DNA of 64,000 nt, from contig CBDCSU010000006.1 of the NCBI GenBank assembly GCA_965221775.1, positions 256,001 to 320,000 on the forward strand, given 5' to 3'. The DNA is from Candidatus Latescibacterota bacterium. GTDB taxonomy: Bacteria > Latescibacterota > UBA2968 > UBA8231. Position numbers and translations under genes: made by a program. Position 1 is the stretch's first letter, and each line of letters starts with the position of its first letter. Positions 43,444 to 56,144 of the stretch are shown here, in pieces. The notes beneath the pieces are model-generated. The model made no database searches, was not told the origin of the DNA, and was given only the letters and a program-made list of their open reading frames with translations.

Positions 43444-44721
43444 ATGGACGAGCAGACCTCAAACAACCCCATGGACCGGCCGGTGGACCCGACCTTCCAG
43501 CGGCGCCGGCGCCTCAAGCGCATCGCCGTCTCGGCGGCGGGGCTGGCGGCGGCGGTCTGGCTCTTCCTGTGGCTCCCCGGGCTCATCCGGCCGTCGGTGG
43601 ACGCCGACCGCATCCGCACGGCCACGGTGGAGCGCGGGCCGGTGGAGGAGACGATCACCGCCTCGGGCACGATCGTGCCCGAGTTCGAGCAGATCCTCTT
43701 CAGCCCCATCGACACGCGCCTGCTGCGCATCCTGGAGAAGCCGGGCGCCGTGCTGCGCAAGGGACAGCCCGTGGTCGAGCTGGACCTGAACCCGGCGCGC
43801 CTCGAGGTCGAGAAGCGGGCCGAGGAGCTGGCCCTGAAGCGGAACCGCCGGACCCAGCTGGAGCTGGACGAACGCCAGCGGCTGAGCGACCTGGACACGC
43901 ACTGGCGCCTGAAGAAGCTCGACCTGCAGCGCCTGCAGACCCGGGTCGATCAGTACGTGGAGCTGCAGGAGATCGGCGCCGTCTCCCAGGAGGAGTTCAG
44001 CCAGGTGCAGTTGGAGGCGCAGCGCACCGGGATCGAGCTGCGCCAGATCGAGGAGGACCGCAGCAACCTGCTGGAATCCACCCAGGCCCAGGTGGAGGCG
44101 TTGGAGGTGGAGATGAAGAGCCTGGAGCGCGAGGGCGAGGAGGCCCGCCGGCGTCTGGAGCGGGCCCGCGTCCTGGCCGACCGGGACGGCGTCCTCACCG
44201 CGGTCTCACCCGTCGTGGGCGCCCCCATCCGCCAGGGCGAGGAGATCGCCCGCATCGCCGACCTCAGCTCCTTCCGCGCCGACGTCACCGTCTCCGACCT
44301 CCACGCCCGCCGCCTCGCCACCGGGCTGCCGGTGCGCCTGCGCATCGACGAGGAGACCTTCGTCAGCGGCCGCGTCGCCCGCATCCTGCCCACGGTGGAC
44401 AACAACATCATCACTCTCGAGGTGGAGCTGGAGGACTCGGCACACGCCTTGCTCAGACCCAACCAGCGGGTCGACGCCTACATCGTCACCGCCCGCAAGG
44501 ACCAGGCCCTGCGCCTCAAGCGGGGGCCCTTCATCGCCGGCGGCGCGGGCCTGCACGAGGTCTTCGTCATCCACGGAGGCACGGCGGTGAAGACCGGGAT
44601 CCGCGTCGGCATCGCCAGCTTCGAGCACTACGAAGTGGTGGAAGGACTCCTCGAAGGCGACGAGGTGATCATCTCCAGCATGAAGGACTACCTGCACCTG
44701 GACGAGGTCCAGATCAAGTAA
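43444..44721 (+). CDS. HlyD/MacA-type periplasmic adaptor
   Basis: N-terminal TM, TATVERGPVEETITASG, coiled-coil hairpin, LRPNQRVD, GLLEGDEVI. Alternative start ATG 43471 (MDRPV). Confidence 0.92.
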   Translation: MDEQTSNNPMDRPVDPTFQRRRRLKRIAVSAAGLAAAVWLFLWLPGLIRPSVDADRIRTATVERGPVEETITASGTIVPEFEQILFSPIDTRLLRILEKPGAVLRKGQPVVELDLNPARLEVEKRAEELALKRNRRTQLELDERQRLSDLDTHWRLKKLDLQRLQTRVDQYVELQEIGAVSQEEFSQVQLEAQRTGIELRQIEEDRSNLLESTQAQVEALEVEMKSLEREGEEARRRLERARVLADRDGVLTAVSPVVGAPIRQGEEIARIADLSSFRADVTVSDLHARRLATGLPVRLRIDEETFVSGRVARILPTVDNNIITLEVELEDSAHALLRPNQRVDAYIVTARKDQALRLKRGPFIAGGAGLHEVFVIHGGTAVKTGIRVGIASFEHYEVVEGLLEGDEVIISSMKDYLHLDEVQIK

Positions 44722-44732
44722 AGGAGGCAGCC

Positions 44733-53466: not shown

Positions 53467-54849
53467 ATGATCCTGGTGGTCGACGACGATCCTTCGGTGA
53501 CCGCGTCCCTGTCGCTGCTGCTCAAGCAGGCCGGCTACCGCACCGCCGCCGCCGCGTCGCCGGCCGAGGCCCTGCGGCGCCTGGAGCGCGGCGGCTGCGA
53601 GCTGGTCCTGCAGGACATGAACTTCTCGCGGCGGACCAGCGGCGAGGAGGGGATGGAGCTGCTGCAGGAGATCAAGGGGCGGCAGGCGGGGCTGCCGGTG
53701 GTGCTCATGACCGCCTGGGGCTCCATCGAGCTGGCCGTGGCGGGCATCAAGGCCGGGGCCGCCGACTTCGTCACCAAGCCGTGGACCAACGAGCAGATCC
53801 TGCAGGTGGTGAAGAGGGCCCTCGGTCTGGCCGCGGCGGGACCGGCCGCCGCTGGCTCGCTCACCCGCGAGCAGCTCGACGGCCAGGGCGACTTCGCCAA
53901 CGTCATCGGCGAGGACCCCGGTCTGCTCAGGGTCCTGGAGGTCGTCAGCCGCGTGGCGCCCACCGAGGCCTCGGTGCTGATCACCGGCGAAAGCGGCACC
54001 GGCAAGGACGAGATCGCCCAGGCCCTGTTCCGCAACAGCGGCCGCCGCGACCAGGCCTTCGTCAAGGTCAACCTCGGCGGCATCTCCTCCACCCTCTTCG
54101 AGAGCGAGATGTTCGGCCACGTGAAGGGAGCCTTCACCGACGCGCGGCAGGACCGCAAGGGGCGCTTCGAGCTGGCCGACTGCGGCACCATCTTCCTCGA
54201 CGAGATCGGCGATCTCGACCCGGGCTGCCAGGTCAAGCTGCTGCGGGTGCTGCAGGACTGCACCTTCGAAGTCCTGGGGTCGAGCCGCACCCGCTCGGTG
54301 GACGTGCGCGTCGTCTCGGCGACCAACCGCAACCTGCTGGAGCTGGTCGAGTCGGGCGAGTTCCGGGAGGACCTGCTCTACCGGCTCAACCTCATCGTCG
54401 TGCACATGCCGCCCCTGCGCCAGCGGCCGGGAGACATCCCGCTGCTGGCCCGCCACTTCGCCCGCGGCGCCGGCCAGGTCTACCGCCGCTGCGGCCTGGA
54501 GATCGACGACGACGCCCTGCAGTGGCTGCAGGGACAACCGTGGCCGGGAAACATCCGCCAGCTCAAGCAGCTGGTGGAACGGACCACCCTGATGAGCCAG
54601 GGCGACCTGCTGGGGGCCGACGACTTCGCCGCCGCCCAGGCCATGCAGCCCGAGGAGGGCGCCGCCGCCGCGGCGGGGCCCGCGGGCCTGCCGCCGCCGG
54701 GCGCCATGACCCTGGAGGAGCTGGAGCGGTCGATGATCGTCCGGTCCATGGAGCACTACGAGGGCAACATCAGCCGCGTCGCCGAGGCCCTCGGCCTGAG
54801 CCGGGCGGCCCTCTACCGCCGCTTCGAGAAGTACGGGATCGAGCCTTGA
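53467..54849 (+). CDS. Sigma-54-dependent response regulator (NtrC family: REC-AAA+-Fis HTH)
   Basis: VVDDD, LQDMN, TKPW, GESGTGK, FGHVKGAFTDA, FLDEIG, FREDLLYRL, WPGNIRQL, NISRVAEALGLSRAALYRR. Confidence 0.96.
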   Translation: MILVVDDDPSVTASLSLLLKQAGYRTAAAASPAEALRRLERGGCELVLQDMNFSRRTSGEEGMELLQEIKGRQAGLPVVLMTAWGSIELAVAGIKAGAADFVTKPWTNEQILQVVKRALGLAAAGPAAAGSLTREQLDGQGDFANVIGEDPGLLRVLEVVSRVAPTEASVLITGESGTGKDEIAQALFRNSGRRDQAFVKVNLGGISSTLFESEMFGHVKGAFTDARQDRKGRFELADCGTIFLDEIGDLDPGCQVKLLRVLQDCTFEVLGSSRTRSVDVRVVSATNRNLLELVESGEFREDLLYRLNLIVVHMPPLRQRPGDIPLLARHFARGAGQVYRRCGLEIDDDALQWLQGQPWPGNIRQLKQLVERTTLMSQGDLLGADDFAAAQAMQPEEGAAAAAGPAGLPPPGAMTLEELERSMIVRSMEHYEGNISRVAEALGLSRAALYRRFEKYGIEP

Positions 54850-56144
54850 GCCTGCGCCTCAAGCTCGTCCTCTACCTGCTCGGCATCCACCTCGTCTTCG
54901 CCGGGGCCTCCGGGTACCTGCTGATCGACGAGAAGCCCTGGCTGCTGGCCCTGGAGCTGTTCTTCCTGCTCTCCTTCCTCGCCGGCGCCCGCCTGGTCCA
55001 CCATCTGCGCGTGCCCCTCGACCTGATCGGCACCGGCGCCGAGCTGATCGGCGAGCGCGACTTCACCAGCAAGTTCATCGAGGTGGGCCAGCCGGAGATG
55101 GACCGCCTCGTGGGGGTCTACAACCGCATGATCGACCAGCTGCGAGAGGAGCGCACGCGGCTGGAGGAGCAGCACTACTTCATGGACAAGATCCTCGCCG
55201 CGTCGCCGTCGGGGATCGTCACCCTCGACTTCGACGGCCGCATCGCCCTGGCCAACCCCGCCGCCGAGCGCCTTCTGGGGCTGGCCGGGGACGAGGCTTC
55301 CGGCCGCGGGCTCGGCGAGCTGGGCACGGCCTTCGGCCGCTCCCTGGAGGATCTCGAGGTGGGCGGGTCCGAGGTGCTGCCCCTGCAGGGGCGGCGGGTG
55401 CGCTGCCGCAAGGCGCAGTTCCTCGACCAGGGATTCCCCCGCGGCTTCCTCCTCATGGAGGAGCTCACCGAGGAGCTGCGCCTCTCGGAGAAGGCGGCGT
55501 ACGAGAAGGTGATCCGGCTGCTGTCGCACGAGGTGAACAACTCCACGGGGGCGGTGAACTCGCTGCTCCACTCCTGCCTCCACTACAAGGACCAGCTGCG
55601 CGAGGACGACCGCGGCGACTTCGAGAACGCCCTGCGGGTGGCCAGCGGCCGCATCGACCACCTCAGCGCCTTCATGCGCAGCTACGCCGAGGTGGTGCGG
55701 CTGCCGGCGCCGCGCCCGCGGCCGGTCGACCTGGAGGCCCTGCTGCGCGGCATCGGTCTGCTCATGCGCGCCGAGTGCGAGGAGCGCGGGATCGAATGGG
55801 ACTGGGACGTGCAGGAGGCCCTGGCGCCCGTCGCCATGGACGAGGGCCAGATGGAGCAGGTCTTCGTCAACATCCTGAAGAACGCCGTGGAGGCGATCGG
55901 CGAGGACGGCCGCATCACCATCCGCCTGGGGGCCGGGGAGCGGCCCTTCGCCGCGATCGAGGACACGGGGCCGGGGATCGACCCGGAGGTGGCCGAGAGC
56001 CTCTTCACCCCCTTCTTCAGCACCAAGGAGAACCGCCGCGGCCTCGGCCTGACCCTGGTGCAGGAGATCCTGGGCCGCCACGGCTTCGCCTTCTCCCTGG
56101 AGAGCCCGGCGGGCGGGCCGACCCGGTTCGCCATCCGGTTCTGA
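54846..56144 (+). CDS. Sensor histidine kinase (2 TM with a tiny loop, HAMP, PAS, HisKA, HATPase)
   Basis: TTG overlapping the regulator stop. SHEVNN, NILKNAVEA, DTGPGI, FTPFFSTK, GLGL. Confidence 0.95.
   Translation: MSLRLKLVLYLLGIHLVFAGASGYLLIDEKPWLLALELFFLLSFLAGARLVHHLRVPLDLIGTGAELIGERDFTSKFIEVGQPEMDRLVGVYNRMIDQLREERTRLEEQHYFMDKILAASPSGIVTLDFDGRIALANPAAERLLGLAGDEASGRGLGELGTAFGRSLEDLEVGGSEVLPLQGRRVRCRKAQFLDQGFPRGFLLMEELTEELRLSEKAAYEKVIRLLSHEVNNSTGAVNSLLHSCLHYKDQLREDDRGDFENALRVASGRIDHLSAFMRSYAEVVRLPAPRPRPVDLEALLRGIGLLMRAECEERGIEWDWDVQEALAPVAMDEGQMEQVFVNILKNAVEAIGEDGRITIRLGAGERPFAAIEDTGPGIDPEVAESLFTPFFSTKENRRGLGLTLVQEILGRHGFAFSLESPAGGPTRFAIRF

Follow-up and report, generated by a model that had tools for sequence, protein, structure and literature searches.

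An operon with one ABC ATPase, one adaptor and three MacB/FtsX-type permease pairs beside a sigma-54 two-component system in a Latescibacterota genome

We analysed a stretch of 64,000 nucleotides from the genome of a Candidatus Latescibacterota bacterium (GenBank assembly GCA_965221775.1, contig CBDCSU010000006.1, positions 256,001 to 320,000 of the forward strand). This whole 64-kb stretch is called the window below, and all coordinates are positions in it. Pfam and NCBIfam matches together with the translations give a single plus-strand operon from 43325 to 56144, which consists of enhancer-like sites, a sigma-54 promoter and 11 genes, and which encodes a membrane-fusion adaptor, one ABC ATPase, three pairs of permeases (A1-B1, A2-B2 and A3-B3), a small membrane protein, an NtrC-type regulator and a histidine kinase. 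This layout is real and varies among relatives, and modules of this kind are widespread. We consider it rather likely that the operon encodes an inducible, MacAB-like envelope export pump that is controlled by sigma-54 and the two-component system and is equipped with alternative (interchangeable) permease heterodimers. In such a pump the kinase would phosphorylate the NtrC-type regulator, which would bind palindromes in front of the operon and activate sigma-54 transcription of the whole unit; as the regulator's own genes belong to that unit, this would be positive autoregulation. The single ATPase, as a dimer, would energise any one of the three A-B heterodimers, each of them the predicted split counterpart of one ADOP-type permease and similar in composition to LolC-LolE plus LolD. 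The periplasmic domains would then, by mechanotransmission, drive a substrate from the periplasm or the outer leaflet into the adaptor, and exit would be through an outer-membrane factor encoded elsewhere.

The window is about 70% G+C, and the gene model was therefore set by codon-position G+C, conserved starts and family scans. It agrees in gene order and gene families with an earlier description made by a model from the letters alone (the original prediction), except for small changes to the probable start of A2 and the possible start of the adaptor. The eleven genes lie head to tail on the plus strand between 43444 and 56144, with gaps or overlaps of at most 37 nt. The first (43444..44721) encodes the MacA/HlyD-type adaptor, with one N-terminal transmembrane (TM) helix and the Pfam domains HlyD_3 and HlyD_D23; the ATG at 43471, which is the start kept in relatives, may be the true one in place of 43444. 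The adaptor scores 97.2 bits against the NCBIfam model RND_mfp (cut-off 94.9) and is DarC- and DevB-like. The ATPase gene (44733..45398), the only one in the operon, is of the MacB/LolD/FtsE type (ABC_tran, 1.2e-33); its top NCBIfam models are DarD, the MacB nucleotide-binding domain (NBD), LolD and FtsE, all under their cut-offs, and its product is 63-97% identical across orthologous operons. Then come permeases A1 (45406..46689) and B1 (46686..47963), the gene of the 172-aa small membrane protein between pair 1 and pair 2 (47956..48474), A2 (48512..49807), B2 (49804..51021), A3 (51042..52292) and B3 (52289..53455), followed by the regulator (53452..54849) and the kinase (TTG start at 54846, to 56144). 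For A2 the ATG at 48512 aligns with the starts of A1 and A3, and the region drawn in the original prediction would also have allowed a GTG at 48479. The ATGA overlaps that had been reported to join each A-B pair are indeed present at all three junctions and also at the B3/regulator junction, while the regulator/kinase overlap is TTGA. A scan for sigma-70 promoters and terminators inside the operon gave nothing over shuffled background that would split it.

The region 43325-43429, previously described simply as the promoter, resolves into a -24/-12 sigma-54 element and two 16-bp enhancer-like sites. The sigma-54 promoter TGGCACGGGATTTGT (43415..43429, plus strand; -24 GG, -12 TG) is the sole match to TGGCACN5TTGY in the window, where 0.14 are expected, and it is kept in all six close relatives that could be compared, in one of them with the canonical TTGC. 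The two enhancer-like sites lie about 60-90 nt upstream of it on the same strand, 22 bp apart from centre to centre. Site 1, TGTCCAGAATCGGAAA (43325..43340), has a degenerate second half-site and is kept across the genus and at locus G019. Site 2, TGTTCGAAAGCGGACA (43347..43362), is a palindrome, the only match to TGTYSN6SRACA in the window (0.64 expected), and is likely to be a binding site of the NtrC-type regulator. Of the related loci, 45 show 200 nt or more in front of the adaptor gene; the -24/-12 pattern is present in 32 of these, and a palindrome of the TGTYS-N6-SRACA class lies upstream of the adaptor gene in 35 (calculated chance about 0.005 per locus), including records titled Acidobacteriota and Pontibacter. 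The regulator itself has the features of the NtrC family (a receiver, an AAA+ domain, a Fis-type helix-turn-helix and a sigma-54 promoter at its target), with Pfam matches to Sigma54_activat (1.6e-62), Response_reg and HTH_8, and it stays under every NCBIfam equivalog cut-off (AtoC 379 bits against 714; NtrX 327 against 600). The genome has one copy of rpoN. The operon is thus best read as one sigma-54 transcription unit, putatively activated by its own regulator at the palindromes, and the originally proposed wiring to a sigma-54 two-component system is supported by conserved promoter, conserved enhancer palindrome and synteny across phyla. A 590-nt, very C-rich spacer (42852-43320) precedes the operon, and a short direct repeat, ccgacct ccgacct ccgac, lies at about 43297-43316, just before the enhancer sites.

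The six permeases (388-431 aa) each consist of one MacB_PCD plus FtsX module in Pfam; five of them exceed both gathering scores, the FtsX match of B3 reaching 22.5 bits against 25.5. Hydropathy gives each protein a TM1 and three C-terminal TM helices, with the periplasmic domain between TM1 and TM2, so that the C-terminal three-TM FtsX module, the N-terminal TM helix and the MacB periplasmic core of the type VII ABC (MacB/FtsX) superfamily are all present. Identity is 43-57% among A1, A2 and A3, 35-53% among B1, B2 and B3, and 20-24% between A and B proteins. The A proteins align to positions ~5-403 of the ADOP model (TIGR03434) and the B proteins to 413-803, at 122-148 bits against a cut-off of 622. 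A thus matches the N-terminal and B the C-terminal half of ADOP, and by this alignment each coupled pair is the split equivalent of one fused, internally duplicated permease, a relationship that is new here. Since A and B are translationally coupled and match the halves of one fused permease, three cognate pairs are favoured over free mixing. This points to cognate A-B heterodimers, made up as LolC-LolE with LolD, and makes the up to nine A-B combinations that had been envisaged unlikely.

The nearest solved structures are MacB, Spr0694-0695, YtrF and YknZ, and no BceB chain is among the 10 sequences matched. Among the A paralogs the periplasmic domain is 38-52% identical, compared with 50-55% in TM2-4; among the B paralogs the values are 29-43% and 42-64%. 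The periplasmic domains are therefore the most diverged part, which suggests that the three pairs probably serve different substrates; the same divergence is also a general trend among orthologs and not peculiar to the paralogs. Genome-wide there are 33 MacB_PCD matches, including a separate array of ~11 fused permeases. This second system (G000:C6:2120000-2160000; loci L108 and L109) has an adaptor and an ATPase gene divergent from those of a sigma-54 regulator and a loop-less kinase, which are 42% and ~30% identical, respectively, to the regulator and kinase of the operon; the ~11 fused ADOP-type permeases then follow on the minus strand, with a second ATPase gene in the middle of the array.

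A pattern scan of species-representative genomes gave 80 loci, which were annotated only against the operon's own proteins. Loci L001-L021 hold the orthologous operon with adaptor, ATPase, one A-B pair, regulator and kinase; 16 of them can be read from ATPase to regulator, and one pair is present in each of the 16. Their titles are Acidobacteriota (Vicinamibacteria, Thermoanaerobaculia and Blastocatellia) and Bacteroidota (Pontibacter, Pedobacter and Cesiribacter), and the latter three supply the single-pair relatives that the original prediction had placed in Bacteroidota. A single-pair operon with the same kinase-regulator pair, and mostly with the enhancer palindrome too, therefore recurs in Acidobacteriota- and Bacteroidota-titled records, a finding that is new here. 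A3 is the best match (37-52% identity) of every single-pair ortholog with a visible A gene (L001-L022), and in the A tree its type-3 clade stands beside the Acidobacteriota-titled orthologs; as the single-pair A and B are always closest to A3 and B3, we regard A3-B3 as the core pair. Two of these operons, those of Pontibacter indicus (L016) and Pedobacter ginsengisoli (L021), contain a TolC-like OEP gene between those for adaptor and ATPase, and its place inside them ties the system to tripartite MacAB-TolC-type pumps. In the more distant loci L023-L080, fused permeases form arrays that reach nine units or more. Adaptor and ATPase genes head nine of these arrays; a divergent sigma-54 regulator gene lies upstream in six of the nine, with a kinase gene beside it in two.

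Comparison with well-studied type VII transporters is informative in placing the operon. It resembles MacAB-TolC (E. coli, A. baumannii, A. actinomycetemcomitans) in the 4-TM FtsX fold, where TM1 and TM2 flank a MacB periplasmic domain, in the MacA/HlyD-type adaptor encoded with the transporter and in the TolC-like gene of the Bacteroidota orthologs, and MacB is among the nearest structures. It differs in that the ATPase is a separate protein, whereas MacB has an N-terminally fused NBD; in that the permease appears to be a heterodimer of paralogs only 20-24% identical, where MacB is a homodimer; and in its three alternative pairs and its own sigma-54 two-component system. MacB proper was rejected as an identification, given the separate ATPase gene and a score of 58-65 bits against the MacB equivalog cut-off of 966. 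With ADOP the operon shares, besides the alignment to the two model halves, a counterpart in the fused arrays of up to 9+ units behind one adaptor and one ATPase. Here, however, the units are split into two coupled genes of ~400 aa each, and membership was rejected because each gene covers one half of the model, at the sub-threshold scores given above, where a member is a polypeptide of ~800 aa. The ATPase and adaptor are encoded in the same operon, so the permeases here are not 'orphans'. The available text of PMC3914696 and PMC11573002 describes the ADOP family as of unknown function. LolCDE likewise has two paralogous 4-TM MacB-type permeases served by a single ATPase gene, but it has no adaptor, is constitutive and essential and does not lie behind a sigma-54 switch; identity with it was rejected on the presence of the adaptor and on the lolCE model TIGR02212, which matches B1 only (26 bits against 362) and none of the other permeases. 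Relative to these known modules, the split-permease form, its co-directional arrangement with its switch and the varying number of pairs are new.

Pair number was followed in the family to which the bacterium belongs, where a kinase ortholog (E<=1e-100) is found in 35 of 76 genomes. The 27 complete operons hold one pair in 14 cases, two in eight, three in four (G000, which is the present genome, G002, G007 and G046) and four in one (G019), so that copy number, compared among relatives, ranges from 1 to 4. The topology is (3,(1,2)) for A and B alike, types 1 and 2 forming a clade on a long stem, and each pair, with A1 in the type-1 and A2 in the type-2 clade, was accordingly duplicated as a unit, in keeping with the original description of one adaptor and one ATPase gene followed by three diverged pairs. 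In a 69-row A tree, types 1 and 2 each have members from four or five genera; the common ancestor therefore already possessed three pairs or more, and today's differences in number look mostly like differential loss of old pair types. The repertoire had been called expandable, and this stands in so far as the number of pairs does vary; it does not in that types 1-3 predate the genera, the differences are mostly losses and some extra pairs are frameshifted. An origin of the extra pairs by tandem duplication of A3-B3 was also considered, and on this the A and B trees disagree: the 69-row A tree groups types 1 and 2 with the pairs of another, paralogous operon (G046b, G047b, G088, G041; SH-aLRT only 85, long branches), and a 36-row B tree joins all own-family pairs with support 89.

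If only A3-B3 mattered, the extra pairs would be redundant leftovers of old duplications under loss, which we consider very unlikely. The 14 complete operons with a single pair fit this idea, as do the frameshifted extra permeases of three relatives (B1 of G004, A2 of G006 and the third A of G019), although two of these three assemblies have one or two contigs, so that sequencing error is possible. Loss goes further at two loci: the one in G074 (L135, 17181-19800) is fully decayed, only pieces of the adaptor, DUF5686 and kinase genes being left, and in G045 (L124, 1457-4793) an IS66-family transposase gene and a HipA-like gene stand between those of kinase and regulator, with no upstream pump genes. 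Ratios of nonsynonymous to synonymous substitution (dN/dS), calculated by NG86 against four relatives of the genus, point in the same direction, being somewhat higher in the extra pairs (0.29-0.52 for A1, 0.39-0.55 for B1, 0.33-0.49 for A2 and 0.38-0.55 for B2; 0.29-0.55 overall) than in A3 (0.26-0.28); they are 0.10-0.22 for the ATPase, 0.31-0.47 for B3 and 0.46-0.61 for the small membrane protein gene. All four extra genes of the present operon are, on the other side, intact, translationally coupled and under purifying selection, contrary to the decay that the original prediction had named as a possible refutation. Types 1 and 2 moreover persist across at least four genera, and in genus g22, where type 3 is lost, the pairs that remain are all of type 1 or type 2, so that the 'extra' types can carry the function alone.

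The A2-B2 segment has a history of its own. Its synonymous divergence (dS) from the genus relatives is 0.44-0.66 (0.51-0.66 for A2), two- to threefold that of its flanks at ~0.2 (L101, L103, L104), and the small gene, which lies before pair 2 here, lies after pair 2 in G002, G006 and G007. The raised dS and the shifted small gene imply that the segment is not strictly orthologous across the genus, which suggests either that different paralogs have been retained or that the segment was replaced by recombination.

Several observations weigh against an inducible, sigma-54-controlled export pump with interchangeable pairs. No outer-membrane factor is encoded in the operon, the 22 OEP domain matches of the genome lying at ~11 places elsewhere; the nearest is ~13-14 kb off inside an RND (resistance-nodulation-division) pump operon. 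The -12 element reads TTGT and not TTGC, and the sigma-54 contact loop of the regulator (residues 226-231) reads GAFTDA instead of the usual GAFTGA, both variants being conserved, the latter in 22 of 22 orthologs. Should regulator and kinase be transcribed from their own target promoter alone, a basal promoter would be required, and none was found in the scan. The extra pairs are dispensable, being frameshifted in three relatives and absent from 14 of the 27 complete operons. A substrate or inducer is known for no member of the operon family. Finally, RNA-library contigs lie only over the adaptor, A3, B3, regulator, kinase and DUF5686 genes, and DNA may be present in such libraries. RNA libraries account for one of the 24 runs listed; the listed contigs of that run are 89-95% identical and so come from a relative, and none of them lies on A1-B2, which was not used as evidence of expression or of silence. 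The RND operon just mentioned (23865-30372, minus strand) is complete, with OEP, adaptor and AcrB-type transporter genes.

The kinase begins with TM1, the loop D-E-K-P and TM2, which are followed by HAMP, PAS, DHp and catalytic domains. That the two TM helices are joined by about four residues, as originally described, is evident from translation and hydropathy and from an AlphaFold 2 (AF2) model based on 19 orthologs (predicted local distance difference test, pLDDT, 75; predicted template modelling score, pTM, 0.39), in which helices 3-26 and 30-69 are separated by a 3-residue turn (27-29). The hairpin, with a loop of 3-6 residues, is conserved in aligned orthologs, and the lack of an external domain holds in these and also in kinases beside the distant fused-permease arrays (L038, L042, L048, L077 and L108, the last in the same genome). 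His15 in TM1 and Glu37 in TM2 are invariant in the 19 orthologs. In all, the kinase has more than 3,500 homologs on record. The HAMP and PAS domains (Pfam) were missing from the original description. The input signal might reach the kinase through its cytoplasmic PAS domain, through the membrane hairpin that bears the invariant His and Glu, or by way of a partner protein. As a membrane-anchored HAMP-PAS-HisKA kinase with an NtrC-family regulator, the pair resembles NtrY-NtrX, and its kinase homologs are labelled NtrY-type by JGI; it differs in the low NtrX score of the regulator, in having two TM helices and in belonging to a pump operon instead of a nitrogen-control locus. NtrY has more TM helices than two.

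An FtsX-type transporter beside a kinase with two TM helices, a very short linker and no extracytoplasmic domain also recalls the BceAB-BceRS modules, and as in these it is likely that the adjacent two-component system regulates the transporter. The regulator here is an NtrC-type sigma-54 activator, while BceR is an OmpR-type regulator, and the kinase has HAMP and PAS domains, inputs of a kind that BceS lacks. The permeases are 4-TM halves with one periplasmic domain each and are accompanied by a diderm adaptor, in contrast to BceB, which according to the accessible text of PMC11009047 is a single 10-TM chain whose one large extracytoplasmic domain lies between TM7 and TM8, from modules found in Firmicutes. 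The defining Bce features are thus lacking, and the idea that the operon is a Bce module was rejected, with permease topology, regulator family and taxon all different.

Bce-like sensing could still have arisen without Bce ancestry. The loop-less kinase might dock by its TM hairpin on one or more of the heterodimers and read their conformational cycling, so that the pump would be sensor as well as effector and each permease pair would add a new input specificity. We think this unlikely. The absence of an extracytoplasmic domain in this orthogroup and beside distant fused-permease arrays speaks for it, as do the strict synteny of kinase and regulator with the pump across phyla, the invariant and membrane-embedded polar residues His15 and Glu37, and the precedent of BceS, which needs BceAB to sense (PMC11009047 and PMC5985334, in their accessible parts). 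Co-location, however, is equally expected of a plain regulator and its target, and HAMP and PAS offer a possible cytoplasmic input that is absent in BceS. We looked for co-adaptation by comparing identity in the TM hairpin with that in the rest of the kinase, according to whether the type-3 pair is kept or lost. The most diverged hairpin is that of genus g22, where the type-3 pair is lost: it is 48-54% identical and the rest 81-83%, and Asp stands in place of Glu37; in G091, where the type-3 pair is kept, the hairpin is 38% and the rest 66% identical. With or without the core pair, the hairpin hence changes faster than the remainder of the kinase, and no signal of co-adaptation can be isolated from it. 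A complex prediction of A3, B3 and kinase residues 1-110 scored 0.00 (mark 0.32, controls not folded) and is no evidence either way on contact between kinase and permease. A broader form of the idea, which we hold to be decidedly unlikely, is that the hairpin with His15 and Glu37 reads the working state of the pump as a flux sensor independent of the Firmicute Bce modules, in diderms of the FCB group and Acidobacteriota, and that permease pairs or fused ADOP copies would be exchangeable substrate modules and at the same time sensory inputs of one sigma-54 switch.

Directly behind the operon, and not mentioned in the original description, lies a gene for an Omp85-like DUF5686 protein (56144..58618, plus strand; Pfam), the start of which overlaps the kinase stop (TGATG). 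The protein has a signal peptide, a CarboxypepD_reg domain, a beta-rich middle domain and a C-terminal Omp85-like barrel (AF2 pLDDT 82), and the barrel matches Toc75, BamA, TamA and Sam50 in Foldseek (E 5e-10 to 1e-7). Its gene follows the kinase gene in five of five loci of the same genus, and in genus g14 there are 16 complete loci that have it between B3 and the regulator; linkage to the operon is limited to this family, and the gene is missing at G019, G046-G048, G088, G091, G028 and L001-L021. The DUF5686 protein could be part of the outer-membrane step of a dedicated exporter for a self-made product, such as a peptide, glycolipid or surface protein, with one cargo per pair, after the model of DarBCD (darobactin), DevBCA (heterocyst glycolipid) or AatPABCD (dispersin). 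The Omp85-type barrel and its linkage in two positions within the family are in line with such a role, and MacB-type tripartite pumps that export peptides, proteins, siderophores and glycolipids are known (PMC5985334, accessible part). The top-scoring models for adaptor and ATPase are those of the darobactin exporter, DarC and DarD, but at 62.5 bits against 450 and 248 against 375 they are far under the equivalog cut-offs. The window contains no biosynthetic or precursor genes next to the operon, and none were seen beside the orthologs, which had been annotated only against the operon's own proteins. With the DUF5686 gene missing from so many loci besides, we regard a dedicated exporter of this kind as distinctly improbable and keep to the regulated envelope export pump.

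The small protein between pairs 1 and 2 has a signal peptide or TM helix plus two TM helices and is glycine-rich, and it has no Pfam or NCBIfam match. Its gene is conserved beside extra pairs in G002, G006, G007, G019 (two copies), G046 and G047, and in the family loci examined it stands only beside type-1 or type-2 pairs, save for a short second copy after B3 in G019. A profile search among 1.84 billion representatives gave 32 relatives at E<1e-3; none of the 18 that were scanned contains a Pfam family, and a protein atlas search with the small protein gave unnamed clusters only.

Few transporter expansions in Acidobacteriota, Bacteroidota and related phyla are as large as that of the MacB/FtsX-type duplicated permeases (ADOP and its relatives), with 28 and 33 ADOP-type copies reported for two Dyadobacter genomes in the available text of PMC11573002. 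COG0577 permeases and COG1136 ATPases are enriched behind predicted sigma-54 promoters in Bacteroidia, Opitutia and gamma-Proteobacteria (PLoS One 2025, PMC12316311), a paper which in its accessible part presents this sigma-54-FtsX permease prediction as the first such evidence; that part of the account makes no mention of a kinase without a loop, of the palindromic enhancer site, of split pairs or of differing pair numbers. In the open-access literature we found no functional study of ADOP-type permeases and no account of a loop-less kinase with a sigma-54 regulator, of the enhancer site, of split pairs or of variation in pair number. The operon is a compact and tractable module, in which one promoter with a defined palindrome is combined with a single kinase-regulator pair, a single motor and a single adaptor. 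In nature it occurs with 1 to 4 permease pairs, and the single-pair ortholog occurs in cultured Pontibacter and Pedobacter species, which makes genetics possible. An inducer of the conserved promoter, if found, would bear on the role of the large ADOP-type family and also on the existence of a Bce-like sense-and-pump logic in diderms.

The runs that hold the stretch (20 runs from nine studies) are labelled sponge or marine metagenome, and other sponge and marine metagenome contigs carry A1-B1, A2 and A3-B3 at 97-99.5% identity. At the other end of the window, genes on the minus strand (1580-8270) encode large secreted proteins with C-terminal CHU_C or FlgD_ig domains, as in the sorting signals of type IX secretion, which fits an organism of the FCB group.

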